Numbered from the stretch's first letter, positions 8,188 to 52,600 are shown. The stretch is 64,000 bases of DNA from Nemertoderma westbladi (GCA_032718475.1 JAUCBJ010002904.1:1-64000); one strand, 5' to 3'. The notes: generated from the letters alone by a model not told the origin. A program made the numbers and translations.

Positions 8188-8710
8188 AACGCTGGCAGAC
8201 TACCATCAAGCCTAAATAAACTACAGTATGTGCAGATTCCAAAATGGTTAGTTAGTATACGTTCTAACACGGTAGTACGACTTATTCTTTAGGAGGGGGT
8301 TGAAATTACAACTCAAGATGCCCCAACTTACTAACTGGCACTTTATCGGACAGACTCTACACACGCAGCAATCTCTTCAGACCTAATAACAGCTAGACAA
8401 CAATCCAGCCTACAAAATATCTGAGTAATAACTATTACGGTACCTGAACAGACCACACAAACAAACACAGGCTAAAACGCTGGCAGACTACTATCAAGCC
8501 TAAATAAACTACAGTATATGCAGATTCCGAAATGGTTAGTTAGTATGCGTTCTAACACGGTAGTACGACTTATTCTTTAGGAGGGGGTTGACCTTACAGC
8601 TCTGGCTGCCCCTACTTCCTAACCGGCACTTTATCGGACAGACTCTACATGCACTGCAATCCGTTCAGACCTAACAACAGTCAGAACAACAGTCCAGCCT
8701 ACAAATTATC
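8188..8710. repeat. Tandem duplication (~290-bp period) in the 5' leader of copy A
   Basis: AAACGCTGGCAGACTA...CCAGCCTACAAA occurs at ~8188-8416 and again at ~8476-8705. Confidence 0.85.
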
Positions 8711-9054
8711 TGTACAATCTGAGCAGGGTTACACGCCTTCTGCTCAATATTATCCTACTAGTAAATAAAACTGACAGAAATAGACCTAAGTAAAATCCCA
8801 ATAAAAACCAGGCGTCCCCGATTTAATATCGAGACCTACCGGTATATAATTATCAAAATCGAATAATACTGCTGTACCTGTACTGCTGTAAGTACCGGTC
8901 CAGATGATCAGGCAGTCAGGCCTACTGGTTACCGGTCGACCGGTACTTTAGTCTTGATCGCTTACGCCGCAATCAAGATCCTACAAACTGTTATTGTTCT
9001 TACCAGAACAATATTAAACTGTATTTATTGCCTACACTGCAATCAAGAATTTTA

Positions 9055-9065
9055 CAAACGGTTAT
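9055..9065 (-). promoter_or_regulatory. Non-tRNA primer-binding site of copy A (ATAACCGTTTG)
   Basis: Abuts the LTR end with no TGG. Exact 11-nt inverted repeat of 9811-9821 inside the LTR. Confidence 0.75.
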
Positions 9066-29387: not shown

Positions 29388-30562
29388 TGTTCGCGCTTTT
29401 AGACCTTTAGCAGTTTAACCCGCTAATTTTAGGTGTCTTCTAGTTTGTAAATCGACTTTAGCCTATAACAAGTATTTGTTGCATATAAGATATAAAGTTA
29501 CACTAGCCGAAGCCAGCCTATGCGCGACCATTCACCCACAGTTAAGGGAGACTGGATTCGGAGGCTCTGACCTTATTGCGGTGTAGACTTACTGTACTAT
29601 TCGATTGATCGTTAATATATAATCTCTGACAAATATTATTTACTTTCAGGAAATATTAACAGTTCCTTTAGGACGTGGCGTTCTAATTATGTAAACAGAG
29701 TTATGACTTACACTAAACACAACGGGATGGCTAATGATTTTCGTATAAAGCGCATTCTTTAGGAAATGCTTTGTTATCTGTCACACTCATGCACACTACC
29801 GCACACTGCTGCACACTGATCTGCCAACCTTCACTAAATTTGATCATATATAAAGAGAATAGCAACCGACACATGTAGGGATTATGAAATAGTATTCAAT
29901 TCTCTCCAAAACCACTATAATGTAAGTCGCAATTGCTACAGGTAACCGGTCTCTCTAACCTTCAGTATATCAAGAAGATTGGGGTTTTATGATTATTTAT
30001 CGATATTCTCCAAATATAACAACATATCCATCAACTTCTAACAATTAATAACCGACAGTAAATAGCAGTAAAATAATGCGGTGAAAGGTATGTATAGTAA
30101 GATATGGGCTGATATGCTATGCTGTGCTGAGCCATGTTGCGATAACAGTTATACGTTTCTATGATCAAAGCCGTCGAATGTTTGGCTAAAGTCTGAAACT
30201 AAGAATAATTCCAAAGCCGATATTCTGGGCTCAGGAAAAAGGTAAACAAAGACCGTCATGCATTGCGCGATTTCCTGTAGGCTTCTGTACAAATAAAATG
30301 AAAATCGCTCTGATTGGTCGAGTGAGCTGAACAAAGAGAGTTAAAAGCTCCACATCGACATCAAAATCAGCTGATAGATTTCGTCATCTAAGCCACACTG
30401 TATTAAGAGTATTTTGTCCGCTAAAGTACACATACAGAAAAATGGCTTTTTATGTCCACTAAAACACCTACAAAGTAAGAAAACGGCTTTTTATGTCCGC
30501 TAAAACACCTACAAAGTACTTTGCGGGAAAAATGACTAGTTATATCCGCAAAAGCCTTTACA
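29388..30562 (-). repeat. 3' LTR of BEL copy B
   Basis: Direct repeat of 58554-59755. Confidence 0.96.
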
Positions 30563-30639
30563 CCGCTCCCAAAAATGGGATTTAATTCTATAAAATATAA
30601 AAAATCACAGTTTCTAAAATATAAAAATACTCTAAACAG

Positions 30640-33600
30640 TTAGTCTTTCTTGCGCGGACGGCGTTTACAGAGTTTTTTGAGGCTAGCAAGAGTCCTTTTC
30701 TCTTTGGGGCGAGCCACTTTACTAGGAGGGCTATAACTCCTGGGTGAAGGGTGCAATACAATTGAATCGGAAGGTTTAGGATTACGGTCGGTGTATCCGC
30801 CGGTCGAGGTACCTGGTTGATCGATATCAACCTCAGTGGAGCGAGGTCGGACGGCCTTTAGAGCGCGTTTCAGGACAGCAGCTCTTACTGGTCCCTGATG
30901 AATCGTCTGAACGAGAGCAGTGGGTGGACCATGGATAGTGAGAAACTTCCTCGGTTTAATGGTTCTTTCCAACTCGCGTTCTCGGGCTCGATATTCGTAG
31001 GGCCGTCGAGATACTTCTTGTAACTCAGGGTGCGAGTTGATAAATAAATCGCCATACTCAGGGTCTTGACGGATGAAATTTATCAAATGGTATGAAGTAA
31101 TATCGTTAGGATTGACGTTCCTGAGATATTTTCGAACAAATTTGGTGGAAATACACTCACCAACATGCTTCATTAGTTCGTAACTCGGTGTGCGTGTTTT
31201 TTGTTCAACAGACGCGAATAAATAAGGATGGAACGCGTAAACTCCCTCGTAAGAGCGTCCAGGGTAATAGCGATGGCGGGACTCACAACGTAAATCCGCG
31301 TTCGCTTCCCAAGCTCGGATGTATCGCAGGGTAATCATCTCATCTACGCTTTCTAAATCGCGATTAAAGGGGCAATTATAACTGGCATGTCCTTTAAGTT
31401 GAAAGTGGTGGCATTGAGTCATAAATTGGGGGCAGACTGAAAAAATGTACGAGTTATTAAGTCTGCAATACGCACAATAGATCTCCATCGCCGGTTGTTC
31501 ATGGAAATAGGAGCAGGGTACGTCTGAGTCCATGGGGGTGAAATGATCTCTCGATGCGCATAATCGGCAACGTTTTCGAGAAACATAGTTGGCATGCCGA
31601 TAGTCGTATGCGGTGAGATACTGTGGACCTTGATACCATCCCAAGATGTAGTCGTTGTCGCTGCTCCGGGGCGCTGTAGGCTGAACCTCCTCGGATTCTA
31701 AGCATATTGGTTCGTCTTCCAATTGCATAGCTGAGGTAGGTGTGGCTGTCTCCTCAAGCGAACCCACTGTCTGAACTTCCACGATAGAATAACCCATGGG
31801 GATTCGAGGTCCTTGTATAACGGAGGAATGTAAGTTCTGTATACAAACATCCTGGAAAATGGCGAATCCAGCGCTGTCTAACTTCTCAGCAGCGGTCCTT
31901 GAACTGACTATCAACGTTACGGAACGGAGTCAGAAAGCGCCTGAAACATTCGAAGCAGATGAATTTATTGTGTTCATCTAGCTTGGCGAGTTTGGTTCCA
32001 AGTATTAAGGGATGGGCGCGTATAGTACGACTGCACACATCGGCTAGCCAACCGGCAAGTGCGGCGTTTTCAAAGATCGTGTATATAGCTAAGGAGGGAT
32101 GAAGGGGAACACTCATGAAGCTATACACGACACCAGGTGCAGTCAATGGTCCATCGAAGTATAATCGAGAATAATGATCTCCATATACTTGTTGATAGGA
32201 TTTCCGACCTTGAAATTCCATCCGTATTCTTGAAAGGCAAGATGTCCGATGGAGGTTCGTTGTACTTTAGTGATACTGCTGGGTGTATTGGCATACATAG
32301 TACGGAAGAAACCTTGGCCTTCTGCCCAGGGAGCAATCAGCTGAGTATCTACGAAAGAATATGGGATATTCTCCATGTTCCTAAAGTCGTTTTGGAGATC
32401 TCCATAAACAGCTGAGCCGATTTTAAGGATTCTTTCGTTAAACAACATCTTGAGCACGGGCTGGGGTAACATTGATCCATCGATACCCATGGCCGGTTTG
32501 CGCTCGGTGTCAGTGACGTAACGCTGCGCGAGTTCGAATTGTCCATGTCGGGGTTCTTTTGTATCTCGGTGAGAGTCTCAAAAGAATAATCAATCACATC
32601 GGAACACGCTCAAGTAAATACGTGGGTAGAACCAGCTAGTCCTCGTATATGTATCATACGCGTAGTCCCCAGTTCTCCAACCGGAACGCTACCTTCGTTA
32701 TCGTAAGTGACAACTCCATACATCTCGATAACGTTAAGAGTTTCGTTCCACTCTTTAGTGGCGTTTTCTAGGGTCATTCCCACTGGATGCCACAAGGTGG
32801 CGCATTTGCTAGCGTTAGGTAGATCTCTATACTTCAAATACTGTGTAGTATATGTTTCTACATCTCCATATCGTTGTATTCTTTCCTCCTCGAATAACAC
32901 GTCGAGATTCCAGTGGACTAATCGAGTTTTGATAAATCCATTGAGATTATACGGAGGTATTACATCCTTCTCTATTCTGGAAACATTATAGGGTTTTCGG
33001 AATGAGTTTACTTTCACTAACTGATCCAGATGTTTCTGCAGTTGTTCGAGTTCGACGAGATCGAGAGGATTTATTAGTGGTAGAAACCTTAGACTATGTG
33101 TAGGATCTTCCGGTTTTACCATGTAATATTGAGTTAGATTGACATAATAAGGGTGATCTTTGATCCCATAAAACGAGTTCGGTAAAAGTCTAGCGCGTAT
33201 GTTGACCTCGTGTACCATACGACGGACAAGATCCGCTCTATTGTCCGGAGGTTCTACGAGTATACCATCGACACGAGCGGCCTCGATTGGCGGACGTTGC
33301 AACATAGGAGCGTCAGCGATAAGATCTCGAGATCTTAGGTTGATATCAACTGGTTGAGGTTGTGCCGTGGCGAAGAGTTTGTCTCCGAAATGGGGAACCA
33401 TCGAAGGATGAATGATGGTTTTAGAATAGAGATCAGTCATAAGGATTTGAGCTTCTGGCTGGGCTAAAGCTGCTTCTTCTCTCTCATCCATTTCTATGTG
33501 TTTCTCCTCGAGCTGATTTTCCTCTGCTTGTCGTTGTAAACGCTCGTCTAGGAACTCTTGTAGAGAATAGGTTCGTCCAAGTTCGAGGTCTTCCTCGAGG

Positions 33601-34831
33601 TTCTGGATTTCTCGATTGAACTGGGGTAAAGCTAATTCTTTCACCGCTTGGACTTGTTGCTGCAATTTACGTTTCTCTAAACAATCGTAAGTTCCTTTTC
33701 CGATCTTCTGCCGAATAGCGTCTAACGCGTTTCGTACAACGCTCTCCTCTACTTCGGTGACGGGTTGTATCGGGGTTAAACCGGGATGATTGTATGGGTT
33801 GAACGGCGATATTAGATGCCCGCGTCCCAATCCGGCTAGGTAGGAAGAGCGAATATCTAGCGAGCCCACTACCGGAGTGCCACCGATTAATTGTTCGGGT
33901 AACACAAGATCATTAAATAGTGAGTACAGTTCAGGGGGATCCGTTATACTATTGGGATCAAGCATTTGGGGTCTCACTAAGGAATGAGGAGGTCTGACCG
34001 AGTATTCCGGAACTCTGATCATGGGTTTATTTAAGGATCGTTTGAGTTGAGCAAGCGTAGGTGATACGTCGAACAAGTTTCGCTTGAAACTCCCATAAGT
34101 ATAGCGAGTAAAACTGTGTTTTGCGCAACGTCTCCGCGGATGTTTATGTCTTTCCGTTTGCTGATTGGGTCTAGAGCATTCGTCGCAGTAATACCAAAGA
34201 CGCACGTCCTGCAGGGGAAACGCGGGTGATCATTCTCCAGTTTTACAATATTCCTCCATCTGTTCGAAGCTATCTGGGACGACAGGTAGCGGTCAATCGG
34301 CGGTAAGATACATCATAGTGAAATAGAGCCGTTTGAGTTCTATCATGGGGTCATGATGTATACCTTGAGGATATCGAGTTTCTAGATTCTGTTGACTGGC
34401 AATATTGAGATATGTTTCTCTCAAGAATTCCAGATAATCGTTGAAGTCGCTGCGTTTATCCGGCTCTTCAACGTCTTCTCTTTCGAGTCGGTTTCGAATA
34501 GAATTCTCGTGTTCTATTCTCGGTTTATCGTTCCGACTCCGCTGGGTATGATATTTAAATAAAACCATTTCCCTTTCGGTGTCTATATCGTCCGTATCGT
34601 GTAAATTGATAGGATGACCAATAGTTAAGAAGTCCATATTCGTACCATTACTATGCGTAGCGAGCAGTGAATTTTCTATAGCTAATTTTCTTTTGGCGGT
34701 TCGATATAACGACCATCGTCCTCCGTAGTAGTTGGACTAGCGTCGCCGCGTATTAAGCTATCAACAAACGCTTGTAACGGTAGAGTATATCGTTCCCTGA
34801 TACCAAGATCATCTTCTATTAACTCAGTCAT
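30640..34831 (-). pseudogene. BEL extra gene: unknown N-terminal region, DEDDy 3'-5' exonuclease (WRN/EXD/MUT-7-like), Cys/His knuckle cluster; broken by several frameshifts
   Basis: ExoI VVTYDNEG; ExoII LPQPVLKMLFNERILKIGSAVYGD; FVDTQ; SIGHLAFQEYG; ExoIII-like PLHPSLAIYTIFE; then CRLCASRDH, CAYC and CHHFQLKGHASYNC. The 5' start is uncertain. Confidence 0.75.
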
Positions 34832-36298
34832 AGCAGCTATATGAGTTTATCAATATTATAATGAGTTTATAATTAGGCTAGTGGGCGTCGCTGCCTACCC
34901 CTCACGGCCCCCGGACAGCGCAAGATCCTCAGCGCCGATGTACCGTCGTCGCTGTGTTTTTCGCCAACGTAGTAGCTACACAACGACAATGATAACCAGC
35001 GCGAGTCACTCCACTGTCCGTCCCAAGGGCTATGATTTGCTTCAGGTTCTTACTGCAGAGGTAGGGCTACTTTCACAATTGCGACTCGCTACTGTAAACA
35101 CACTTTAGTAGTAACATTCACCTATAAACGCACAAATTCCACACAATTGTCACAAATTGTACACATTCGGGCCATTTGTCCGTTAGTCAAGTGCCTTCCA
35201 GAATGCCACGTTATTATTATGTATCCTTGGATACTAGCAGTGTGCTATTTATTCCTTATGCTATTCAATGGGGCAAGCTTTCTATTGTTCTTTTAACTCG
35301 CTTCTAATTCTAGCGTGGTTGTTGCTATGGTGACATTATGGAAAGCTAGCAGTATAATTAGGGTAATTCCCATGCATACAGATCTGGGATGCTATTTAAT
35401 AGTAATTCTTTAATTGTCAATATCCCCTTTATACATGATTTTATGAATTTTATCGGCTATTGACTATATATTGGAGATTCTCGCACACTAATACACTTAA
35501 TAGGGTGAATCTCCGCTCCCATGATCTATTAATTAATGGAATTTTGGGAATGTTATAAATTGTATAAAAATGACAATTTATCAAATTCATTAAAAGAGAT
35601 GAATTTAAATTTATTCCCGTAAATTTTATTATTTAATGTTGGAATAAGCACAATTTTATTCCAGAGCACGTCTGTGAACTGTGATCCTTGATTCTAGGAA
35701 ATTTGTCCTTTTAAGAGTATCGGTAAGTGCTACGATATCTTAATCGACTAGAATTTTAAAGGATCTAAAATATGACAGATTTTATAAATATTAATATTTA
35801 ACATTTAAGATGGGCACCGGTTTATTCCAGAACTTGTCTGGGGACGTTAACCATTGATTCTAGAATTTTGTCTTTCAAGTATATCGGTGGGTGCCGCGAT
35901 ATCTTAATCGACTAGAATTGCAGATGGTCAAAGGGTTTAACAGATTTATTTTGCGTTTTGCGCTACTGTTAAAGGGACATCACGCTACTATATGTATTAT
36001 TTAATATACGGTATGAGAGCAATATTGCAAGAAGCAATGTCAGTGAGAAGAGGCAAGTCATTTCCAAGGTCTACCCAGAGCTTGGTTTAGCCAAGACACG
36101 AGGATCTGAATTTTGCATTCCTAATACTCTACTTACCAATAATACTTGAGTATAGTAGGAGCTTTATTGTACTTTAATAAGTACGGACATTTCATCTTAC
36201 TGTAGTCACGTATTTATAATATGATACGGACAGTAAGGAAAGAGAAAAAGAATTATTTCTCGCCGTATATAATATAATATATAATATATATAACATAT

Positions 36299-39200
36299 GA
36301 ATAATATGCACTGCCCAGCATTTGTAAATTTAGTAATTATGAAGACAAATGAAATAAATGCTACTGCTTGTATTGAAGAAAAGTTATGTTTTTATTCTAC
36401 AGATGATATTTCGGCTATATTGCATAGCCTTTATCAAATCTATTTTTTATTATTCTTATTTGAATTTGTTTACATAGAATATCGTAATTCTTAGTTTGTT
36501 GTTAAGGTAACCTAGACTTAATATAATAAAGTTTTTATTGTTGAATGTAGTCATGGAAGGAGTTCAAGCCCTTTAGATTAGTGAGCAGCATACCAATCCA
36601 AAATCGTTCTGATTTTCTTAGTTTCTTTATTGTTTCTACGCAGTTGTCCCTTCTTGGTAATTGGTCAATCAAAATAAATTTCAAGTTTTTGGAGGATTTG
36701 TTGTGTTTTTCGATGAAATGCACTCCGATATTGCAACTTTTCACACCTTTTTTTATATGAGATTTATAATTTCCAAGCCTCTTCTTGAAATTGATTGTTG
36801 AGCCAACACCCTGTAAATTGCATTCTATGCAGATAGCTAAATATACTACATTTTCCGAGTAACAGTTTAATCGTTTGTTTATTTTAAAAGTCTTGCCTGT
36901 AGCTACACATTTGAAATGGTTGGTTTCAATTAAGTAATTTTCACAACAGTCACACTTTTTAGCGCTACAATTGTAACAACCAGGATTATCAATGCATGAT
37001 AATTGTTTGTATGGATTGGATGGTGCTAGAAGTTCTTTTAGGTTTGGGTTTCTTTTATATGCAACAATTATTTCGTTTCGTGGTAGTATTTTCCTTGCCA
37101 TTTCGTTTGACTCTAATATACCATAATGTTTATTGATAAGTCTTTTAAAGTTTGGAGCCATTGGGTTATACGTTGTTACTAAAACTGTTGGATTTTTAAT
37201 ACTTTTGTTTTTTCCTTTATAATTTCTTGCTTCCGATCTTTGCATGTTCCTAACTTCTTCAAAGACTGTATTTACATGATCTGCATTATGTCCACACTTA
37301 ATTAGGTGGTTCTTGTACACGTTACCTTGAGTCACGTAGTCTTTATCTTTTGTGTTAATTCTTTTCAACCTTAAGGCAACTCCTTTAGGAATTCCGTTGA
37401 TTTGGCATTTAGGGTGGGCAGATTTACTATTTAAATATATATGTGAATCTGTAGGTATACTATACACTGATGTTGTTAACTGATTATTTTCAATTGTTAT
37501 GTTTAGATCTAAAAAGTGTAACGATTTAGCACCTATATCCAGTGTAAACTTAAGTTTTGGATCCAATGTATTTAATAGCTTAAAGAATTCGAATAGACGC
37601 CTTTTTGAACCACGCCATATGGAGAATATATCGTCTCTGTATCTAAACCAACATCTTAATTCAGGGTATCTTTTTTTCTTGTTAATTACTTTTATATCAA
37701 TATCTCCTGCCACTATGTCAGCGTAAGAACAAGAATTTTTCGGTCCCATTGCAGTGCCGTCTGTTTGTATCCAAAACTCATTTTGATACTGTGATACGTT
37801 GTTTTTTAGGCAAATTTCCAATGCTTCAATAATGCAGTCAGAAGGTACATCAAACAAGTGTATATTTTCTTTTAATTTATTAGAAACTATATTGATCCCG
37901 TTTTTGTTGTCAATAGAAGGAAACATATTAATAATATCAAAACTAATCAATATATCATTATCTGCAATTTCATGTAAATTTAATTCATCTATTATTTCCA
38001 GCATGTGTGAGGTATCTTTTACCCGATGTGGTAATGTGTTAGCTATCTTTTTGCAGTATGTTTCTACAAATTGAGAAAGATTTTCTGTTGCGCTACCACA
38101 ACCTGATGTTATTACACGCGCAGGTGCTTGTTCTTTGTGTAGTTTTATTCTTGGATAATTTGTGCCCGGTGTAGGTTCAGAGTTTAATAAAATATAATTT
38201 ACCCATTTATTGCTTAGTCCAAGGTCTTTCCATTTTTCAGTCCAGTTTGTAATTTGGTTTAAAATTGTAAAACTCGGGTCTTTTTCAACTTTCTTAAATG
38301 ATCCACAATCCATTTGCTCTTTTAGTTTTTTGTTGTCTGTTTCCTTATCAATGAATACAAAAGAATTTCCTTTGTCTTGTAATCTCATAATATATTCCTT
38401 ATCATTTATGTTTGTTTTTCTAAATTTATTTAACGCTTCTCTTTCTTGAGGATCTATGTTGTCTCTTACTTTCTTTAACTTAGTATCTTTAAAAATATCT
38501 TTCTCAATACTGTCAAGAAATACTTCGATTGCTGGAATATTGCATTTTGGTGGATTTCGTGTTGATGCTATGTGTGGTGGAAATAATGAATTGTCAACTT
38601 TGTCTGCTGATTCTATATTAATTACTTCCATATTGTCTTTATAAAAAAACACTTTCCATAGCACTTTTCTTTTAAAATTTTGCCAATTTCTTTGTATATC
38701 ATCCCAATTGACACTCATTGGCTGTGGTACAAATGAAGGCCCCAAACTACATAATTTAATAAGTCCGGGATCAATTTTTTGTTCTGTTAAATTAAATACT
38801 TTTACGTTACTATTTGTTGTTACATTAACATTTCCAATGCTTTCATTTTCCTGTTCTAGAACATTTAAGGATTTCTCCAAATTTCCTAGACTTTCTTTAT
38901 TATTTTTTGACATAATATCATTTACTAATGATCTCATTTTATTTCTAAACACATTAATATTGTTGTCATTTACATATGAAAGGTTGTAAATACCATCACT
39001 ACTGTCTATACACATTTTACCGAACTTACATACGTACACGCCACATTGATAACTATTAAATTGTACTCTTTTTATTGGTGGTTCTATTATGATTTCGATG
39101 TCCAAAATGTTGTTTTTCAATGCCTCTTTTTTAATCCAATATTTTAAACTGTTTATAATCTTTATATTTTGTCCACCCATAGAATCTAAGTAAAATATTT

Positions 39201-39495
39201 TTCGCGATTTTGGTTTAAATATTACTAAAACCCAATGGTCACCATTCATAAGGACTGGGAAGTACAAACCATCGTAATTGAATATGTTTATTTTTGAAGT
39301 CCATTGTTTTATGGCATTGTATCCCCCACGTTCAGAGTTTAATATTTCAAAAAAATGTGTGTTGAATGTTCTGTTCAAAGTATTCGTGTTGCAATCGCAC
39401 CAATATCTAAGCAAACTTTCCAAAATATTGTCAGATAACCATCCCTCCTCTTTTAAACTGCCAATATCCATTTCGTATAATGAACAATTGGAAAA
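36299..39495 (-). mobile_element. Penelope-like element (GIY-YIG type), copy 1
   Basis: Absent from the equivalent site in BEL copy A (~3700). Inserted in a (TA)-rich tract. Confidence 0.9.
36535..39471 (-). CDS. Penelope-like ORF (978 aa, uninterrupted): Ulp1/C48 protease, RT, Cys-rich linker, GIY-YIG endonuclease
   Basis: HWVL, YLDS, QFNSYQCG; QDKGN, SFDIINMFPSI, GTAMG, RYRDD, FLDLNI; CYNC..CDCC; NVVYLAIC..QGVGST..RLGNYKS; LRKSERFWI..GLN. Confidence 0.93.
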   Translation of the reverse strand: MDIGSLKEEGWLSDNILESLLRYWCDCNTNTLNRTFNTHFFEILNSERGGYNAIKQWTSKINIFNYDGLYFPVLMNGDHWVLVIFKPKSRKIFYLDSMGGQNIKIINSLKYWIKKEALKNNILDIEIIIEPPIKRVQFNSYQCGVYVCKFGKMCIDSSDGIYNLSYVNDNNINVFRNKMRSLVNDIMSKNNKESLGNLEKSLNVLEQENESIGNVNVTTNSNVKVFNLTEQKIDPGLIKLCSLGPSFVPQPMSVNWDDIQRNWQNFKRKVLWKVFFYKDNMEVINIESADKVDNSLFPPHIASTRNPPKCNIPAIEVFLDSIEKDIFKDTKLKKVRDNIDPQEREALNKFRKTNINDKEYIMRLQDKGNSFVFIDKETDNKKLKEQMDCGSFKKVEKDPSFTILNQITNWTEKWKDLGLSNKWVNYILLNSEPTPGTNYPRIKLHKEQAPARVITSGCGSATENLSQFVETYCKKIANTLPHRVKDTSHMLEIIDELNLHEIADNDILISFDIINMFPSIDNKNGINIVSNKLKENIHLFDVPSDCIIEALEICLKNNVSQYQNEFWIQTDGTAMGPKNSCSYADIVAGDIDIKVINKKKRYPELRCWFRYRDDIFSIWRGSKRRLFEFFKLLNTLDPKLKFTLDIGAKSLHFLDLNITIENNQLTTSVYSIPTDSHIYLNSKSAHPKCQINGIPKGVALRLKRINTKDKDYVTQGNVYKNHLIKCGHNADHVNTVFEEVRNMQRSEARNYKGKNKSIKNPTVLVTTYNPMAPNFKRLINKHYGILESNEMARKILPRNEIIVAYKRNPNLKELLAPSNPYKQLSCIDNPGCYNCSAKKCDCCENYLIETNHFKCVATGKTFKINKRLNCYSENVVYLAICIECNLQGVGSTINFKKRLGNYKSHIKKGVKSCNIGVHFIEKHNKSSKNLKFILIDQLPRRDNCVETIKKLRKSERFWIGMLLTNLKGLNSFHDYIQQ

Positions 39496-40271
39496 ATGAA
39501 CAAGGAACAGCTGAGAAACCTCTTCGCGGTATACCGCGCCGCGGACCAGAAACGCCGTGACTCAACCGGTAATGGTACAGATCTCAATCTTACCAACTCA
39601 GGATTGAGTACCGGAACAGGTGCAGGTATAGAAAACAACTTAGCAGTCCGAATATTGCAAGAGATGCAGGAACTGAGGAAAGAAGTACAAATATCGAATC
39701 AGTTACAGGGGAAAGTCGAGGAATTGTCCGAGAAACTGGACTCTTAGGGATTATTCGTAACCAACAGAGTTTTATAGAAACGGTGGACAGTGAGCGACGC
39801 GAGAGAAATCTGATTATTACTGGGATTAAAGAAACATCTACCGACTCGGGAGGAGAAGGAGACAAGGAAAAGATCTTTGATGTAATTCAAGCTATGGGTT
39901 TAGGTGAAAGAATAACACAGGCAACTATCGCTAGAGAATGGACGATTCAGCGTCTCGGAAAAGAGAACTCCGGATCAAGGGATAGACCCAGGCCCATTCT
40001 GGCTGTTGTCCGCAACAGAGAGGATCGCAACGTTATTTTGAGTAACGCTAAGAAGTTGAAGGAGGCAGAGGCTCCATTCAAAACCACGTATCTAAAGAAG
40101 GATGTTCATCCAAGTATTAGGAAGGAGATGGGTCGCCTGCGTGCGCGAGAATATACGGAGAAGAAAAAGCCACAGAACGAGGGGTGCGAAATATACTTGG
40201 ATTATCGTGAGCGAGTGTTGAAGCGGGACGGTGTAATTATCGACAGATTCAACGCGGTCCTGAGCGCCTAG
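39496..40271 (+). pseudogene. LINE ORF1 (coiled coil plus RRM-like region), one frameshift near 39745
   Basis: RRERNLIITGIKE, RLG..RPRPILA, YLKKD. Confidence 0.85.
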
Positions 40272-43200
40272 CGGCGCGTAGGGCATGATAGACGTCTACG
40301 GATATGTTCGTGGAATGCTAGAGGAGTTTGTGACAAACTATTAGAACGTGACCGACTGGAATTTTTTAGTCAATTTGATTTAGTTTGGGTTCTTGAAACT
40401 AAGACAGCTGCAAAGATTTACTTACCGGGATTCGAGGGTGTCCAGAACACTTCCAAGAAGAACTCTAACCGCGGAGGAGTTGCTCTATTTATTAAAGACT
40501 ACCTACTACCACAGATTAAACGATTAGACTGCAAGACAGAAGGCTACATTGCTATAGAATTACTATGTCTCCCAGATTGCTTGTTAAGCGGCTGCTATAT
40601 TCCGCCCTTAGACTCGCCGTACTACGATCCGTTCCAACTCGCCCAGCTTCAGGCGCAACTACAGACAGGCGGCCAATCCGTTGTAGTTCTAGGGGATCTT
40701 AACGCTCGAGTTGGCGACGCTTCACCTCACCTAGATGTGCCTTACAGAAACATAGTCGACCGAGATGTAAACCGCCACGGGAAGGACGTGATCGCTATCT
40801 GTAAATCTACGAATTCTCTTATTTTAAACCATCTCGAATACAAAGGTAAACAGTTGGGAGGAAATCTTTCATACAGGATGGGAAATAAATGGGTTTCAGA
40901 AATCGATATAGGTGTAGCGAAGGGGCCTATTCTAAACTGTATCTCTCGCTGGGAAGTCGACCAGTCCGTAACCGGATCAGACCACGCCGCACTACTGCTC
41001 GACGTAGATTGCGGTTTGCAGGTCCCAGTTAGTGACCTAAAGAACCGCTCAGCACTCCTGGGCGTTTCAGGTAACCAAACAAAATCTGGTCTTGGGAACA
41101 GTACACACCACTCGAACGTCGATTGCGTCAAGTTCCACAATGTAATGGAGGAAGTCGAACCTCCGCTCCTGGTCGGTCTATCGCCGGAGGATGTAGATAC
41201 CACGCTGAAGGATTTAAATAACCTTATCGCCTCCAGTTCTAGAATAGCTCGCAATCCGGGCTGCAACACTAGATTCGATAAACGCAACAAATATACTAGG
41301 TGGGAAACCATTCTCGAAGGTAATGATCCTAAACAGATATGGCGGGCAATAAACTGGAAGGGCCAGCTGTACGACGGTAACGATAATCTCGCTCAGGACC
41401 AACCGCCCCCTAGCCAGTTTAAAGCTCACTTTGAATCTCTACTAAATCCCACAAGCGCCGTTCCGCTAAGCGCTGGAATCGATCCTGAGTTTGAATCGGC
41501 GCCGTATATACCGGAACTAGACGATAAGTTTACTCCACGCGAGCTTGCTGATACTCTAGCTGATATTAAGGTTAATAAAGCGTATTGGGGCAGTAGTTTA
41601 GGGTTAATATGCAAACTTCCAGGATCTTGGTTAATTTTTATGTTATCAATATTCAATGTAATATTTGAGTATGTACGATTCCCCCCAGCATGGTGTTACA
41701 GTAAACTGTTTGTGCTTTATAAGAATAGTGGGTCACGTATGGACTGCGGTAATTACCGTGGTATTAGTATTGTTGACTCATTCGCTAAGATTTATGATAT
41801 GCTTATAAATTCTAGGCTGCTTAGATGGGTCAATATTGACAGCTGTCAAGCGGGTGGTAGAAAGAACCGTGGGTGTACTGAACAAGTTGTTGCATTACGA
41901 TTATTAATTAATTATGCTATTTCTAAGAAGTGTAAATTATTTGTTATGTTTGTCGATTTTCGTAAAGCCTACGATCTGGTCCTCCGTAACAAACTGTTGA
42001 ATGTACTAAGGGAAGCAGGCTGTGGGAAACAATTACTCTACGCCATTAGGGCTATATATAGTTGTACAAAAATTGTGTTGAAAGATGCAGTAATTATATC
42101 TATTCTCGGTGTAAAACAAGGTGCATCAACAAGCGTAACTTTATTTTGTATGTATTTAAATCAGTTTGTTGTAAGGTTACGTGCAGCGTACAGTACAGAT
42201 GGTTTTTTGGGAGTTATACAGATATTGCTACTTATGGATGACTCAGTTATTCTGTCTACTACACGTAGCGCATGTGAAACAAAATTTCGTGTTCTAGCTG
42301 ATTATTGTGCAGATTACGGAATGACTATAAACCCCAAAAAGACAAACTTTATGGTTATTAATGGATCGGTGTCTGACCGGGTCCCCATAGAATATGGAGG
42401 AATTAAAGTTTCTAACTGTGCTACATACATTTATCTAGGCTCACCATTCTGTGAGAATGGTAAAATGTCCTCAGTGCTCAATGTACACGCAAGTCGGTGT
42501 ACCGATGCTGTTAATAAGTTTATTATTTTCTGTACGGTCAACGATTCAATGCCTTCCACTTGAAACTGAAAGTTTTCCAAGCTTGCCTATCAGCAGTACT
42601 GACATATGGGTGTGAGTCTTGGTTAACTAGAGATTTCAAGTCTATAGAGGTACTGTATATGAAAGCGATTAAGTCGTTGCTTGGGGTACGTAAAACTACT
42701 CCGAATGACGTCTGTTTGGTAGAACTCGGTATTAAACCGCTACGAGCCATTGTTGTCGAAGCTCAAAAGAAATTGTTCACAAAATACTCAAAATTAGCCG
42801 ACAGAGCTCTACCAATCACGCAAACTCTTGATTTATGTGCAAATGTGGTAGGAATACACGGATATACTATACTATCTGGTGCGTGCAATGAAGATATTTC
42901 TAACTACAATTTAGATTCTATTAGGCGTAGGATTCGTAGTAAGCCACCCACTGCGACTAAGTTTTGGTCATACTGTCATGATATTAACCCGGAGCTAACA
43001 GTACATACAATTTATCGTGATAATGTTAACTACATACCAGACTACCAGCGTAAAGCATTTACTCGTTTTAGGGTGTTTTCGCATGAGTTACGCCGTGAAA
43101 AGGGTAGATGGAGTAGTACTCCACCTGCCGAGCGTGTGTGTTCATGCGACCACATCTCAGTTCAGAACGAGGAACATGCAGCTATGATATGTTCTCGTAC

Positions 43201-43324
43201 TAGGGAACTACGTGGTCAATTTCGTTACGTTGGATATTCGTCTTTAGTAGATCTGTTTCGTTGCCAGGATACAAAACAACTGTGTTGCTTCATTGAAAAA
43301 GTATTAGACAAATTTAAATGTTAA
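40272..43324 (+). pseudogene. LINE ORF2: APE endonuclease, RT, C-terminal CCHC (frameshift near 42560)
   Basis: ICSWNARG, LETK, VLGDLNAR, SDH; NYRGISI, FVDFRKAYD, GVKQG, LMDD, YIYLG; ERVCSC..EEH..C. Confidence 0.92.
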
Positions 43325-43459
43325 TCAGTAAATTAGTTGGACAAATATTGTGCTCTACCGTGTTATAATGTGAGTTAATTAATTAAGTTTGTTTTCAGTG
43401 TATTGTGTAATAATTATTGCTTTGTTTATCGAAAGTATTTGTCAATAAAATAATAATAA

Positions 43460-45232
43460 TAATAACATCAGGTTGTGGTAGCGCAACAGAAAATCTTTCT
43501 CAATTTGTAGAAACATACTGCAAAAAGATAGCTAACACATTACCACATCGGGTAAAAGATACCTCACACATGCTGGAAATAATAGACGAATTAAATTTAC
43601 ATGAAATTGCAGATAATGATATATTGATTAGTTTTGATATTATTAGTATGTTTCCTTCTATTGACAACAAAAACGGGATCAATATAGTTTCTAATAAATT
43701 AAAAGAAAATATACACTTGTTTGATGTACCTTCTGACTGCATTATTGAAGCATTGGAAATTTGCCTAAAAAACAACGTATCACAGTATCAAAATGAGTTT
43801 TGGATACAAACAGACGGCACTGCAATGGGACCGAAAAATTATTGTTCTTACGCTGACATAGTGGCAGGAGATATTGATATAAAAGTAAGAAAAAAAGATA
43901 CCCTGAATTAAGATGTTGGTTTAGATACAGAGACGATATATTCTCCATATGGCGTGGTTCAAAAAGGCGTCTATTCGAATTCTTTAAGCTATTAAATACA
44001 TTGGATCCAAAACTTAAGTTTACACTGGATATAGGTGCTAAATCGTTACACTTTTTAGATCTAAACATAACAATTGAAAATAATCAGTTAACAACATCAG
44101 TGTATAGTAAACCTACAGATTCACATATATATTTAAATAGTAAATCTGCCCACCCTAAATGCCAAATCAACGGAATTCCTAAAGGAGTTGCCTTAAGGTT
44201 GAAAAGAATTAACACAAAAGATAAAGACTACGTGACTCAAGGTAACGTGTACAAGAACCACCTAATTAAGTGTGGACATAATGCAGATCATGTAAATACA
44301 GTCTTTGAAGAAGTTAGGAACATGCAAAGATCGGAAGCAAGAAATTATAAAGGAAAAAACAAAAGTATTAAAAATCCAACAGTTTTAGTAACAACGTATA
44401 ACCCAATGGCTCCAAACTTTAAAATACTTATCAATAAACATTATGGTATATTAGAGTCAAACGAAATGGCAAGGAAAATACTACCACGAAACGAAATAAT
44501 TGTTTTATATAAAAGAAACCCAAACCTAAAAGAACTTCTAGCACCATCCAATCCATACAAACAATTATCATGCATTGATAATCCTGGTTGTTACAATTGT
44601 AGCGCTAAAAAGTGTGACTGTTGTGAAAATTACTTAATTGAAACCAACCATTTCAAATGTGTAGCTACAGGCAAGACTTTTAAAATAAACAAACGATTAA
44701 ACTGTTACTCGGAAAATGTAGTATATTTAGCTATCTGCATAGAATGCAATTTACAGGGTGTTGGCTCAACAATCAATTTCAAGAAGAGGCTTGGAAATTA
44801 TAAATCTCATATAAAAAAAAGGTGTGAAAAGTTGCAATATCGGCGTGCATTTCATCGAAAAACACAACAAATCCTCCAAAAACTTGAAATTTATTTTGAT
44901 TGACCAATTACCAAGAAGGGACAACTGCGTAGAAACAATAAAGAAACTAAGAAAATCAGAACGATTTTGGATTGGTATGCTGCTCACTAATATAAAGGGC
45001 TTGAACTCCTTCCATGACTACATTCAACAATAAAAACTTTATTATATTAAGTCTAGGTTACCTTAACAACAAACTAAGAATTACGATATTCTATGTAAAC
45101 AAATTCAAATAAGAATAATAAAAAATAGATTTGATAAAGGCTATGCAATATAGCCGAAATATCATCTGTAGAATAAAAACATAACTTTTCTTAAATACAA
45201 GCAGTAGCATTTATTTCATTTGTCTTCATAAT
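43460..45232 (+). mobile_element. Penelope-like element copy 2: 3' half, inverted relative to copy 1, frameshifted
   Basis: Near-identical reverse complement of 36336-38114. Confidence 0.95.
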
Positions 45233-45440
45233 ATATATAATATAACATATAATATAAGTAAGTAAGTAATAAACACTAATATATATTGCACTAATCTACT
45301 AAATAATCGCTAAAATAACGTTCTACTAAATAAAATTAAAGAAAACGATTATAATAAAATTACATAATAATACATACATAAATATAAAATAATAAAAACA
45401 AATATAAAATAATATAGTCACACACCCACTCCAGACGCTG

Positions 45441-46190
45441 TCACATTGGGGAGTCCCTGGATGTTGGTTGGATTAGGGAGGTGGTCGTGGGAAGAGTATC
45501 TTGCCTTCCATAGTTTCCGGAGAGTTCCCTGTCTCTTTCCAGTAAACATAAATGACCAACTGGGCGATTGAGCTGCTGCGTCTCGAAGACAATTCCTGGT
45601 TTTTTAAAGTTAGGTCGCATGACGACGAGTTCTACAGATCGCACCAAACCATCATCTGAGATATGAGTCTCAATGATACGACCTGTCTGCCACCGCTTAC
45701 GTGGAATATCTGACTCCACAATAAGGACCATGTCTCCTGCGCTGACGTTTTCTTGCTGCGCAAACCACTTAGTTCGAAGTTGTAGCGTAGGCAGATAATG
45801 TTTTTCGAAATGGTCGCGAAACGACGGGATAACAACTGCATAAGTTGCCAAGTTTGCCGGCAGTATTCGTCTCCGTCCGTGATTTCCGATCGTGGTAGCA
45901 TGGCTATAGGTTTCTTCAGTAGGAAGTGCGCGGGTGTTAGCGCTTCCAGGGAATCGGGACTCGATGAGACTGGCATAAGTGGTCTCTCGTTGAGATAGGC
46001 GGCGATTTCCTCCATTAACATCCGCAAAAGTTCGTCGGTGAGATACGCGCGGCACGGCACTATAAAGTGAAATGCGGTCTTCACGCTCCTGATTAATCTC
46101 TCCCAACTTCCTCCCCACCAAGGGGCGACGGCGGCGTTGAAGGTCCAGCTAGAAGCTGTGGGGCGAGCCATGAAGTGAGTGAGCCTTAGC
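45441..46190 (-). pseudogene. pol: BEL integrase, C-terminal part
   Basis: WTFN..APWWGGSWERL, LNERPL, LTPAHFL, GDMVLI..W..GRI..DGLVRSV. Confidence 0.92.
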
Positions 46191-49100
46191 GTAGGGGTAC
46201 CATTAATCAACCTGTCGTTCTGTCGCGTTTTTTTTCAGTATTTTATTTTAAACGTTAATAACTCGGCCAATCCTTGATGAAATCTATCCAAACTTGGTAC
46301 ACATGTTGTTTGGCAAAAGTTTGAAAATTTTCCAAGTAGAATTTGCGTGGGGTCTTCGTGCAGCATCAGTGTAACTGTTATTGCAGTTATAATAAATTTA
46401 TTTATCCAAATTTAAATGCGTTAAATTATTATTACTGTAGGATAAATCAGCTGGTTTTTCTGACAAATTTTGCAATACATTGGGGTTGTCTGCATGTACC
46501 ATGTGTACCGGTACTGTCAGGCTGTACTCTGAATCGAGAATCCTGCAATCAGTCAATACTGCAATACTGGTCAGCCGGTACCATACACTGCAGACATGCC
46601 ATATCATGTAATCTAATTAACCCCGGCAACCCTTGCGGTGATTAAAGTTTAGGCCTAATTAGCCCAGTACCGGCACCGGTAATAATAATATAATAGTTTA
46701 GATAGTTACCGCTAATCATTCAGTCATTGCTGCATTGGCACGGTACACCGTACAGCCGTATTGCTGTACTGCCGTTGTCAGTTGTAGTGCGCACCGTACT
46801 GCCGTAGGTACCACCCATGGCCTACTACACACAGGCCATGACAAGGACTTTGCTGTGAAATTAGCGTAGGTTGACTGTGCTGATTATCAGATTATGGTAC
46901 TGTGGTACAAGCTATATACTGTTAGGTATACTGCTGTACTGGGGTGGGGTTAGGAATAATCCATTGGTTTTAGCATTTAATCCCTTTATTTATTATAAAA
47001 CCATTGGAAATATTCGCAAATGCCGCTCCATTCTGCCATTACTGTCTGAAACGCTCCCGACAGTCCACCAGTCCGATGTATCTGGACCCGAGCAGCCGAG
47101 TTGCTTCAAGAGGTGATTAACGGGGGAATACTACGCAATGCTACGGAATTGCTTGTTTGTCAGTACGATTCTATTTGGGTATTTACTACACTCAGACACT
47201 GGGAATACGGCGGTCAGTCAGATCGTAATGCGGGCCACTGCCAAGTTCCTCATGCCTCACTCCGGTCACCCACCTTGGAGTGCGGTGGGAAGAGTCCCAC
47301 TTACTGACTTACGTCGACGACTGGACGAATCGACGAGGATTGCGATCTGGGTTTAGCGGCGGCCCGGATCCTGGTATCGCCTGGGGGAAATGGTTGAACG
47401 TCGGGCATACTTGTATCGCACTGGATTACGTTCTCTGCGACGTGAAAGTGTGAAGCAAATTCGTTGTCGAATTGGGTCGAAAGCTGCGGGAATTCTACTG
47501 TTCTACGGGAGTAAACCGCAGCGGTCCGGTGACTACGGACGGATACTACTGGGATAAGCAGGTATTTCGATCGAGTTTCTCGTATTCTCGATGCTCGACA
47601 GCTCGAGGCGGATAGAGAGTTGGTTGTGTTGGGCGGTGTTGTTCAATTCTATCAAACGTATTAAATAATTGGTAAAATAATAAAAACACACCAGATAAAG
47701 ATACTGAGCTTATGGTAAAGAGATAGGCCGAACTTACAATTTCCAAATAGATTGTTCATATAATAAATATATTTTTGGTATTTGATTTCAAGATAGGGGG
47801 GGGGGGGACTGGACGCAATAAAAATTCATCCCTCTCCAGGGGAAATTGGACGCAAATAACAACAGCTGATTACTCTCAAAAATAAAACTGTAACCTGTTC
47901 TATTGTGTTTACTTTATTGTTTTGGTTAAAATAACGTGCCACTGTAACCTGCTCCTTTCCCAAAATTGAGAAATTAATATTGAGGCGGGATATTAATTTG
48001 CCAAGATGGGATTTGCGTCCAGTCCCACCCCCCTCCTGTCTCTTGATTTTACTAAAAAATAGAATACATTGCATTTTACTGTTATAATTACTGTATTGAA
48101 TAAAATAATTAATTTATTTTTTATTAAACCGTGCTAAGCACGTTGAACTGGAGCTCTAACAATTCCCCACTAGCGGCAGACAGGAACTGTAAAAGTCTCT
48201 GTAGAATTTCTAATTAAGCAATGCTCTTAGGTAACTACTACTAAATTTCAGATGAATCTGATCGTTGGTTCTATAATTACAGCTATTTTTACGTTTCTGT
48301 TAATTCGCCCCCTAGCGGCAGACAGGGGAACTGTAGAAGTCTGTGTGTGTAGAATTTCAAAATTTTTTATAGACTACATGTGTACCAAGTTTGGTTCCAT
48401 TTCATCCTTGATTGACTGACTTATAAGCGTTCAAACATTCCTGCCACAAACATTGCCAGAGGCAGCCACAAACAAATAAAAGCTGCAGGAACTCTAGCGA
48501 TAATTATTTAATTAATTATTAAATAGTGTTTCAATTAAATTACTTACGAAAATCTAGTCATCTTCTTTTAAATATGGACCCTGCATTCGTGGAAAGTATA
48601 ATATTTGATAATTCAGCAGTCAGCCTACGCTAATTTCACAGCAAAGTCCTTGTCATGGCCTGTGTGAAGTAGGCCATGGTACCACCCTACTACCGGTACC
48701 TGCTGACCGGTGGCAACTAGCACTTCAGCACTTGCACAGCAACAGCACTACCGGTGATACACAGGTTGGAATTTATGTAGAGTTTGCTCAACAGTACAGA
48801 TATAAAATAGTTATCTAAATTATATATATTACTATTGACAAGTATTGAAATATATACCGTTATTCGTTTTATCAGTATTTGCAACATCTGACATTGAAGA
48901 GGTGAGAGAAGATGAATACCGGCACTCAACAAAACCAACGCTTATCACAGGTCGGTATGGTTACCTCGAAACCGGCGCGACTGTCCACTCGAATACAACT
49001 TCAAAACACAAACACCAACAATAAACTGAAAGCGAATCGTAAGTTTTCAGAAGAATCTGTCATTGGGACGAAGAAAAGGAAGCCGAAACCACGGGAATGG

Positions 49101-49643
49101 ACCACAGCTAAGATTGAATGCTCCCATTGTCAGAGTTCCTGGACCGAAATTGAAACACCAATTACTGATGGGCTTGATCTCTCAAACCAAAACTTCCTCT
49201 GCGGTGTTTGCGCGGCAGTAAAGATTGAAAGTCTGGAAGCTGGCATCCCTAGGTATTATTATTATAAAGAGCGTCAGCCTGCATTTAATAAATATATTTT
49301 AATACAAAACAGGTCGAACGCAAAGAGGCTTATAATGAAGACGAGTACTGCATTGATTATATTCCTATAAACCACCTGGCTTTGCATATTGAACGTGCGT
49401 TTGGAAATAAGTTCGTGCTACCCTTCCGTGGGTGGTAGATGTTGCGGTTATGTATTGGTGGGAGGAGGGGGGGGGGGGGGGGTGCAGATTTAAAGGGGTG
49501 AACACGTACTGTCCCCCTTTCTTTGATTAATTGGTGGTGTGGGTTAATCTCTCATAACCTGATTTTGTGATACAGTCGCACAATTTTAATTTGTATCTCA
49601 TAACTGGGCCTCGTGCTGCGCGAAGGCCCCACGAACGTGTTAC
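46191..49643. mobile_element. Unclassified 3.45-kb composite insertion in the BEL integrase
   Basis: 7-bp TSD CCTTAGC at 46184-46190 and 49644-49650. Removing it restores VDDQLRLTHFMARPTASSWTFN. Confidence 0.85.
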
Positions 49644-52600
49644 CCTTAGCTGATCGTCCACCTGTCTTTGGTTCCAATCTTTGACGTAAGCCTTGATTTC
49701 ATTGTTGGCACCAATGAAGTTCGTTCCCTTATCAGATCTCATTGTGTTGCTAGTTCCAAAGCGAGCGATCTGTTGGCGTAGACTCAGTATGAAACTGTTG
49801 GTAGATAGATCGTTCACCATATCTAAATGGATCGCTCTACAAGTCATACAGACAAAGATGACACACCATCTCTTGACTATAGTCCTAGCACGATATACTT
49901 CAATAGGGCCAAATAAATCCACACCAGTATTAGTAAAGGGTGGTTCATAGAAGCTTACTCGTTCCCTAGGTAATTCTGCCTCTCGCTGTGTTAAAGGCCT
50001 ACTGAATGCTTTCCTACAGGGTATACAGTTCCTAAGAACTTGGTTCAGAGCTCTACGGGGTTTATGAAAATAATAGCGAGTTCGAATTTCGCTAAGAACT
50101 CGTTCTCTACCAGCATGATAAAGCTTACTGTGAACATCTACAATCATCTTGATTTGTATTTCAAGATTTCTAATGAGTATGGGAAACTTAGTGTCAAAGG
50201 ATAATGGAGCATTAGTTAGTCTTCCTCCAACGCGTATTAACCCATCTATCATTGTGCTAGAGAAACGATCCCTTAAGCGCATCTGTGGATTTCTCAACAA
50301 CAGGAAATACTTATCGGAATCCTCATAGCATTGCAGGAGTCTCAGTATCTGCTTATTTGTTTCTTCATGCTCCTGGTAACTGATCCTCTCCTTCAGAAAT
50401 CTGTCTGATATCTTGTATTTGGGAAGATCTTTAACAACATGGACCTGACGCAGATGTCAGTGGAGCAGTATCACTAGCGGTCTTCGTCCTGGAGTAGTGA
50501 TGATGAAAACATCGCTTTAAATATGTAACGGCCTTACAAAGCCGATTCCAGGAGCTATAGTGATGTATCGCTCTCTGCAGGAGAGGTGAGAGTCCTTGCG
50601 AGACGTCTGGTGTTCCAGATTTCCAATCTCTCTCTCTGATTTCCACAACAGACTTATTTGTGGCTGGGGGTTTTGGATCCAAAGCGTCGTCTCCGGAAGT
50701 GTGTAGTACAGACAGATCTATCACGGGTTTAAATAACTTCGATTTACTCGCCCGGGTTTTAGGTTTGACTTTCTCCGCTCCCTTGGCTTGTCTAATCTCC
50801 GCCGTAGTAAGATGAGGAGGCCATTCATCCTCTTCTTTGCTTAGGAAGTCGGGTCCACCTAACCAGTCTGGAGTATCTATCAGTTCTTGTGGAGTTGCTC
50901 CCCTGGAGGCGATGTCGGCTGGATTAATCGTCCCGGGGCAATGTCTCCATTGATCTATCTTCGTGCGACTAAGTATAATGGCTACTCTGTTGGTAACGAA
51001 GACGCTGAACTGACAGACTTCATTGGTTATATACTCCAACACGAGTAAAGCATCGGTCCAATAGACAGTTTTCTCCAGTGGATAGTCGATCTGTTCTGTT
51101 ACATTCCGGCCGATGGCTGTAGCGTATAGAGCCGCTTTTAACTCCGCTCGAGGAACTTTCAACTTGTTGTTTATCAAGGCCTTAGAGGTAACCAAGGCGA
51201 CCTTAATTCCATCCGGAGTTTCAACTCTCAGGTAGGCTACTATACCTATTCCCATATCGCTGGCGTCTCCAAACACATGGAGTTGATAGGAATACGTGGG
51301 GAGAACGTGACCAAAATATGAACGGGAAATTATAAAGTTCTCGATGGATGGTAGAGAATCTTCCCATTTCATCCACTTCTTTAATAGTTCTCCCTTAAGT
51401 GGATCGTCCCATGAGTGGTTTTCAAGCCACATTTGTTGTACTAAACTCCGAGCAATCAATATAACTGGGCTAATAAATCCCAATGGATCGAAATAAGTGC
51501 TCAGGATACTTAGACAAATCCGTTTAGTCCGAACTGGATTATCTCGCTGTTTTAGCTGGAAAAACAGGATATCTCTCTCCGTGTCCCATTTCAAACCAAG
51601 CGTCTTGGTTTCTGGAAGATCGTCCTTGATAAGGTCTAGATCTTTAACTCCTCGGTCTTCTACCGGGATCGATTCCAGAAACTCACGGGAGTTACTGGTG
51701 AATTTAGTTAATCGAAATCCACCTCTTTTCAAGCACTCTACCGTTCCTTTGGCGACATCAATGGCTTCTTCCACCGATGGGAGGGACTTTAAATTGTCGT
51801 CCATGTATATATCCCGTTTGATGTTGTCGATAACCTCTTTGGAGAAGGCGTCCCGGTTGTCATCAGCAGTGGTGCGCACTACTGAGCAGGCGTTTGAAGG
51901 GCTCGAGATGATCCCAAAAGCCTGGATGGTCATCCAGTACTCCACCGGTTTCTGGTTGAGGTCTCCTTCAGGCCACCACAGAAATCGTAGGCTGTCTCGA
52001 TCTCTATCCAGCGCCTTAACTTGTAAGAACATGCCTTCTATATCGGAGGCGAAAGCGATTGAATATTGTCGTAATCTTAAGAGTATTCCCAACAAGGATT
52101 GGAGTAAGTTGGGTCCCGGCAACAACTCGGAGTTAAGGGATTGGCCCATGTAGAGGGCGGAGCCGTCAAATACTACCCGGACTTCGTTGGGTTTACCGGG
52201 TTTGGGAACGTAATGATGTGTTAGATAGTACGTTCTCTCAGTTATGGGTGTTTCTTCCGGTACTCGCTCCGCATATCCCTTGTCAATGAATTTCTTCAAC
52301 TGGGTCTTGTACATCTCCTTAGCTGAAGCATTTGCCGTAAGGCGTCGATGTAGTTGCGCAATTCTCTTCTCCGCCAAGGGTCGGTTGTTTATAAAATTGG
52401 GTTCTCGCCGTCGGAAAGGCAGACCAATCTCATACCTACCTTGATCTTTAAGAAAACGTGTAGTCGTTTCCTGTATCTGCTTGGCTCTTTCTTCTTCTAC
52501 CGATAGGGCCTTATCGTAGGAATTGGGCTCTACAGCCTCTTGAGTAAAGAATCGTACGGCGTGTTCATCACGAGTCTTCGCGTTGTAACGATCTATCACT

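Follow-up and report, generated by a model that had tools for sequence, protein, structure and literature searches.

A family-wide extra gene with a likely DEDDy-like exonuclease domain and zinc knuckles at the env position of a long BEL/Pao retrotransposon from Nemertoderma westbladi

Juno, Vesta and Terminon elements of bdelloid rotifers carry DEDDy-type exonuclease domains in third open reading frames (ORF3s), with no activity demonstrated (PMC5408684, PMC6431247, PMC6338049). In rotifers, the published third genes of this kind belong to Gypsy-like and Penelope-like elements and come with neither a function nor a selection signal, and the variation test in PMC5408684 covered env and GDSL ORFs, indicating neutrality. 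The published third genes of BEL elements are env-like (PMC8742986; PMC3118150, PMC13524379), and the word 'exonuclease' is absent from the accessible text of PMC3118150 and PMC13524379. Here, we describe a 64,000-nucleotide stretch of Nemertoderma westbladi DNA (GCA_032718475.1, JAUCBJ010002904.1:1-64000; hereafter the window), in which a complete BEL/Pao element on the minus strand (copy B) carries an extra gene between pol and its 3' long terminal repeat (LTR). The family keeps this gene under purifying selection, and its product is likely to contain a DEDDy-like domain, followed by three zinc-knuckle-like clusters. An earlier, sequence-only reading of the locus knew of no BEL example, and none was found in the literature here either, with most subscription papers, the Repbase entries and the supplements of PMC3118150 outside the search; its statement that bdelloids have DEDDy ORF3s was confirmed (PMC5408684).

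The extra gene lies between the integrase stop (45441) and the 3' LTR (ending at 30562). Its first ATG lies at 34831 and its stop at 30640, which gives 4,192 nt or 1,397 codons, with a coding part of 1,200–1,400 codons depending on an uncertain start; the sequence-only reading had rebuilt ~1300 residues across frameshifts. The sense-strand coding region which that reading placed between pol and the polypurine tract was likewise found, but only after removal of an 8,957-bp insertion, and a spacer of 1,653 bp still separates it from pol. In copy B, in-frame stops interrupt the gene at three places (34293, 34230 and 32610), and its frame changes four times (near 34.7, 32.55, 32.19 and 31.9 kb). 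Family status was examined in contigs from four public sequencing runs, which derive from one organism and three studies. Among these contigs, all but one of the four frame changes have length variants close by, and the remaining one has a loose or inserted piece beside it; the length variants fit ordinary decay better than introns as a cause of some of the breaks. Contigs in all four runs span all 30 bins of the extra gene and represent very many variant copies. Several deletion forms devoid of exonuclease and knuckles are also present, one of them in three of the four runs.

Ratios of nonsynonymous to synonymous substitution rates (dN/dS) were computed against copy A, an internally deleted relative in the same window, with a transition weight of 3. 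They were 0.40 for the N-terminal half of the extra gene (95% interval 0.27–0.57; 222 codons) and 0.30 for its tail (0.23–0.81; 51 codons), whereas gag gave 0.33, pol 0.29, and the spacer 0.70, 1.14 and 1.12 in its three frames. Unweighted values were 0.29, 0.24, 0.26 and 0.23 for the N-terminal half, tail, gag and pol, respectively. The sequence-only reading had regarded a ratio near 1 as incompatible with its proposal; those found against copy A are 0.3–0.4. Over the first ~200 codons, the open frames show no constraint (dN/dS 1.49 and 1.17), so the true start of the gene is uncertain. Copy A had also been taken as evidence that the gene is a family feature, which holds only as far as the N-terminal half and the tail are concerned. 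The exonuclease and the knuckles are missing there, as the alignment jumps over 30798–33481; the family status of the exonuclease part therefore derives from the sequencing runs, and this region was tested on run variants. Within 32030–32230, a segment chosen by the analyst and the sole part of the domain given a codon-position variant test, 11 of the 14 listed variants occupy third positions of the frame of the ExoIII candidates described below (p=0.0007, two runs). Of the 40 differences listed among 1,272, the 34 within 30640–34660 split 13/8/13 over the codon positions, which is the expectation for neutral decay of this copy alone. The extra gene, lying within the LTRs, shared by many copies and selected like gag and pol, is thus real, and we regard this as virtually certain.

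For the domain at 32030–32760, a DEDDy (RNase D/WRN-type) fold is likely, though not proven. The ExoI (DNE) and ExoII (KIG....GD) motifs of the sequence-only reading are both present and, scored as ungapped blocks against a WRN-like profile, take top rank among ~4,100 positions. ExoI D-x-E at 32702–32694 is first of 4,145 (Z 5.2, next 4.5) and ExoII KIGSAVYGD at 32424–32398 first of 4,115 (Z 6.9); the two fall in the correct order with their acids in place. A separate comparison returned the identical ExoI register, without significance there, and 44 ungapped columns around ExoII align with the class comprising WRN, EXD2, MUT-7/Nibbler and bacterial PF01612 proteins. Two home-built profiles were employed, one built on 13 bacterial WRN-like exonucleases, selected out of 120 at <80% identity, and one of 20 sequences with RNase D and PolA domains added. 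Against these, the middle piece of the protein scored 12.3 and 17.9 bits, respectively, which none of 1,000 shuffles matched with either profile. When the window was cut into 1,272 six-frame tiles, the three top tiles all held the DEDDy-like stretch (9.4–10.1 bits, next 2.9), and among the seeds used the fit was best for the WRN-like subgroup. In the ESM Atlas, 28 of 30 matches belong to the PF01612 set, with a top score of 0.92 on a scale where 4–10 of 100 shuffled proteins reach 0.9. The sole NCBIfam matches were two RNase D models, far under the cut-off (E 0.034 and 0.099). A whole-domain glocal alignment reached Z 5.5–6.4 relative to 100 shuffles; because it put ExoI and ExoIII in the wrong places, its register was not used.

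A number of results speak against this assignment. With 153 of 256 features shared, the Atlas match stays under the 170 usual within the family, and only 24% of the matched cluster carries PF01612. Pfam returned no match for the exonuclease pieces, HMMER retrieved no relative of the exonuclease piece among 1.84 billion representatives, a word search among longer proteins yielded none among 45 candidates, and a search of PDB sequences gave chance rows only. AlphaFold2, run without an alignment, produced models of predicted local distance difference test (pLDDT) 50 and 40 with no DEDD fold; such single-sequence models are unusable, and the Foldseek search with the first of them carries no meaning. 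Only the ExoII region (~60 residues) aligns automatically, the block of strands 2–3 and the pre-ExoIII block rank just 995 and 94, and some 45 extra residues separate strand 3 from the ExoII helix. The DEDD fold that the sequence-only reading expected to see predicted was accordingly not returned by Pfam or by single-sequence AlphaFold2/Foldseek, and support for it comes from language-model features and profile scoring. Plasmid and phage searches with the exonuclease piece also gave chance rows only, none of 58 pattern matches in a metagenome scan was related to it, and neither Pfam nor NCBIfam matched an HRDC domain, the exonuclease itself being likewise under Pfam detection.

In WRN, the ExoIII motif is P-L-x6-Y-x3-D; here, three candidates were found at 32125–32111 (YSFMS, Y-x3-S), 32083–32069 (YTIFE, Y-x3-E) and 32053–32039 (G-W-L-A-D), and a canonical Y-x3-D is absent, for which reason we call the domain DEDDy-like rather than a canonical member. 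The P-L-x6-Y spacing of WRN occurs twice running, ending once in Ser and once in Glu. Ranks against the WRN-like profile also weigh on the negative side, with YSFMS 8 of 4,160 and YTIFE 42, neither significant. YTIFE, put forward as ExoIII in the sequence-only reading with Glu in place of Asp, is hence a possible assignment and one of three candidates. The Asp of GWLAD sits in the sole long helix of the weak AlphaFold2 model. None of the three acid-site codons carries a variant at ≥8% in either of two runs, which makes the non-canonical state a property of the family rather than of copy B alone. Since ExoIII offers a Glu, a Ser or a shifted Asp, the chances that the predicted domain is catalytically active appear evenly balanced. 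The central proposal of the sequence-only reading, a DEDDy gene with knuckles in a BEL element, thus stands as a selected, family-level gene with a DEDDy-like domain, for which YTIFE is a candidate ExoIII. As a separate observation, 32149–32069 holds two tandem occurrences of P-L-x6-Y-x3 at a distance of 14 codons, which looks like a duplication of the ExoIII lead-in.

Downstream of the exonuclease, the three Cys/His clusters noted earlier are present at 31569–31372. They are CCHC-like, none being exactly C-x2-C-x4-H-x4-C in copy B, and knuckles two and three each hold a codon at which copy B departs from nearly all run contigs. Pfam matched zf-CCHC_3 under the cut-off (E 0.045), the Atlas matches of the knuckles were CCHC-type clusters with scores <0.9, and two more C-x2-C motifs occur in the protein beyond the three knuckles. 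The basic tail is a possible nuclear localisation signal, to judge from its composition. No transmembrane segment was found in six extra-gene pieces, in which the top 19-residue Kyte-Doolittle window is 1.24, and this argues that the gene is not env.

Copy B does look self-priming in the manner of Tf1, as judged from the sequence by the criterion of PMC6317226. The 11 nt at its primer-binding position are complementary to its own LTR, and LTR shuffles held the 11-mer in 4 and 0 of 2,000 cases for the two copies. The equivalent positions of copy A, 9055–9065 and 9811–9821, pair through 11 exact complementary bases, and the two copies differ from each other by three compensatory changes. No tRNA-type start was found at the primer-binding position, and an 18-nt tRNA-Arg/Gly site is wanting in both copies. 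A quick self-primer test on seven related loci gave 4–10 paired bases. In Tf1, RNase H suffices to produce the self-primer (PMC7175516), and the need for an exonuclease in self-priming is therefore not obvious.

As to function, we tentatively favour a protein that would engage RNA 3' ends in trans, probably against a small-RNA or RNA-decay defence of the host. MUT-7 and Nibbler, in whose class the domain would fall, act in small-RNA trimming. The extra gene would be made from a separate or spliced RNA, which is suggested by the 1.65-kb spacer after pol, and its basic tail would carry the product to the nucleus. The zinc knuckles would grip single-stranded RNA and the DEDDy-like domain would engage RNA 3' ends, probably so that host small-RNA or RNA-decay defence would be blunted. 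Derivatives without exonuclease and knuckles, namely copy A and those in the runs, fit a product acting in trans. RNA is quite probably the substrate, because the C-terminal knuckles of Trypanosoma brucei RNase D (TbRND) supply RNA binding to its exonuclease. Among the RNA-directed roles, silencing as the target is a guess that could fall either way. The most specific form of the proposal, in which an 18-kb self-priming BEL/Pao element deploys a nuclease with a Glu-for-Asp site and knuckles to destroy or mis-trim the 3' ends of PIWI-interacting RNAs (piRNAs) or small interfering RNAs (siRNAs) in trans, is unlikely as a whole.

Alternatively, the domain might be a catalytically dead DEDD-fold adaptor or decoy resembling EXD1, binding RNA or piRNA factors without cutting. 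The missing canonical Y-x3-D suits this, as does the Ser at the Asp site of the top-ranked candidate, whose codon has no variant ≥8% in two of two runs, and EXD1 itself, which retains the fold but not the acids, binds single-stranded RNA (PMC4712191). However, the D and E of ExoI and the D of ExoII, lost in BmExd1 (PMC4712191), are present here, YTIFE provides an acid at the WRN P-L-x6-Y spacing through an equally invariant Glu codon, and bdelloid ORF3s tolerate a D-to-E change (DEED; PMC5408684), so that we hold the adaptor to be doubtful. A helper in replication, which would trim the RNA self-primer to the 11-bp duplex or edit complementary DNA (cDNA) 3' ends of an 18-kb genome, draws on the self-complementary primer site with its compensatory differences, on an element about twice the usual BEL length and on the best profile fit to the WRN-like subgroup among the seeds. 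Yet Tf1 manages with RNase H, the extra gene is separate from pol, the substitutions between copies are numerous and give no hint of unusual fidelity, and the knuckles point to RNA. Primer processing and proofreading thus look weaker than an RNA-directed role, and we consider such a helper unlikely.

The gene could also be real while its likeness to exonucleases is partial or due to chance, the product being an accessory nucleic-acid-binding protein of another fold. The negative Pfam, HMMER, AlphaFold2 and Foldseek results and an automatic alignment confined to ~60 residues would be explained, but four partly independent scores (Atlas, block ranks, NCBIfam and profiles) agree on the family and ExoI and ExoII are in order with acids in place, which makes this improbable. 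Already disfavoured, and very improbable, is the reading that the gene stands in for env or is a host fragment riding along as a neutral passenger. The env position and the env-like genes of some BEL elements (PMC8742986; PMC13524379) would be in its favour; against it stand the absence of any 19-residue window above 1.24 in the six pieces and selection on the extra gene that matches that on gag and pol.

The host element was assigned to BEL/Pao from DUF1759, Peptidase_A17, Integrase_H2C2 and DUF5641, which Pfam matched in the expected order. PF05380 was present in 120 of the 120 pol relatives listed (best identity 40–44%), and those named among them were mostly from marine invertebrates. The LTR size, the TG...CA ends, the target duplication (5 bp, at 29383–29387 and 59756–59760) and the purine tract of copy B are Belpaoviridae features, for which LTRs range over 0.2–1.2 kb, and its two LTRs are 98.8% alike (14 mismatches over 1,172 aligned bases). 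The gag-pol region is interrupted by stops, frame changes and the ~3.46-kb insert in the integrase. At ~17,955 bp, copy B exceeds the 4.2–10 kb genome given in the Belpaoviridae profile of the International Committee on Taxonomy of Viruses (ICTV; PMC8742986), a range that is descriptive and not a phylogenetic criterion, and it extends the known BEL size range to ~18 kb. Scans of IMG/VR using pol gave no relative. Among 79 metagenome BEL loci (top segments 32–44% identical to pol), none matches any of five extra-gene pieces (best E 0.46). A long direct repeat is present in 32 of the 79, and 31 of these span 6.1–8.9 kb end to end; the remaining one is an overlapping repeat, not an LTR pair. Feature coordinates are compiled in Table 1.

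Table 1. Coordinates of copy B, its extra gene and associated features in the window.
Feature	Position	Strand	Remarks
Complete BEL/Pao element, copy B	29388..59755	minus	30,368 bp as found; ~17,955 bp minus two later inserts
5' LTR, copy B	58554..59755	minus	1,202 bp, TG...CA
Primer-binding position	58543..58553	minus	11 nt complementary to own LTR 59306-59316
gag-pol, copy B	45441..57165	minus	DUF1759, two knuckles, protease, reverse transcriptase (RT) YMDD, Peptidase_A17/RNase H, integrase, DUF5641
Later insertion in integrase	46188-49643		~3,456 bp
Later insertion, Penelope-like with nested long interspersed nuclear element (LINE)	36288..45244	not assigned	8,957 bp, foreign to the BEL family, missing from copy A
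Uncertain 5' part of extra gene	34230..34831	minus	frame change near 34.7 kb; stops 34293, 34230; no purifying signal
N-terminal half of extra gene	32760..34229	minus	Cys/His cluster 34187-34116; acidic coiled-coil-like stretch 33677-33459 (called by eye)
Likely DEDDy-like domain	32030..32760	minus	stop 32610; frame changes near 32.55 and 32.19 kb
Further C-x2-C motif	31934..31963	minus	just upstream of frame change near 31.9 kb
Three CCHC-like zinc knuckles	31372..31569	minus	second and third each one ligand short in this copy
Strongly basic C-terminal tail	30640..30730	minus	kept in copy A
Short purine tract	30563-30570	minus	directly ahead of 3' LTR
3' LTR, copy B	29388..30562	minus	1,175 bp
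Copy A	784..10290	minus	relative with internal deletion, 75-88% alike; extra gene reduced to N-terminal half and tail

The window as a whole is eukaryotic DNA made of nested mobile elements. In the Penelope-like element at 36288–45244, a 1,008-codon ORF combines a Ulp1/C48 protease, an RT-like region recognised by eye and GIY-YIG; the same insertion holds a 1.78-kb inverted partial copy, 99% alike, with the LINE nested in between. A second ORF with Ulp1/C48 protease, PHD finger and RT lies at 18180–21242 (1,020 codons). The insert at 46188–49643 has an apparent 7-bp flanking duplication and smaller inverted repeats inside. Upstream of gag and in its frame, with one TGA between, a 346-codon stretch (56125–57165) without a family match gave dN/dS ~0.5 against copy A and is possibly a long gag extension or a further accessory ORF. 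LTR-like sequence in opposite orientation (92–783) adjoins the truncated 3' LTR of copy A, and a broken Gypsy-type pol (RT, RNase H and integrase) lies beside copy B on the plus strand at 25807–28960.

A BEL/Pao case with purifying selection at the level of gag suggests that RNA 3'-end enzymes have been captured at the env position repeatedly and usefully. It also renders testable whether animal retrotransposons encode enzymes directed against piRNA or RNA-decay defence. If true, the most specific form of the proposal would mean that a transposon encodes an enzyme that suppresses small-RNA silencing in animals, and would explain recurrent DEDDy-plus-knuckle genes in unrelated retroelements.

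Among known systems, Roo, Tas and the mosquito carriers of Chuviridae-like glycoproteins are BEL/Pao elements in which a third gene likewise follows pol ahead of the 3' LTR, but these genes encode fusion glycoproteins and the elements measure 4.2–10 kb. WRN, EXD2, MUT-7/Nibbler and bacterial PF01612 proteins share the ExoI and ExoII blocks in the same order; the present domain differs in ~45 extra residues ahead of ExoII, a non-canonical ExoIII and a likeness under Pfam detection. EXD1 has a DEDD fold in a piRNA context and a possible loss of catalysis in common with it, but has lost most acids and bears an Lsm domain, whereas three acids are present here. TbRND joins an RNase D-type exonuclease to a C-terminal knuckle array and acts on small RNAs; both RNA binding and cleavage depend on the knuckles, and its over-expression reduces guide RNA levels (PMC7797062). 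As a cellular mitochondrial enzyme of proven activity and with no sequence match found to the extra gene, it is an analogue in architecture only. The third ORFs of bdelloid Juno, Vesta and Athena/Terminon elements likewise sit at the env position and contain a DEDDy-type domain; they lack a transmembrane segment and have one acid changed, and some have a nearby Cys/His motif (PMC5408684). The odd acid is at ExoIII here and gives DEED in bdelloids (PMC5408684). The gene described here further differs in being carried by BEL/Pao, in spanning 1,200–1,400 codons that include a long N-terminal half and three knuckles, and in its purifying selection, the bdelloid ORFs being compared by description.

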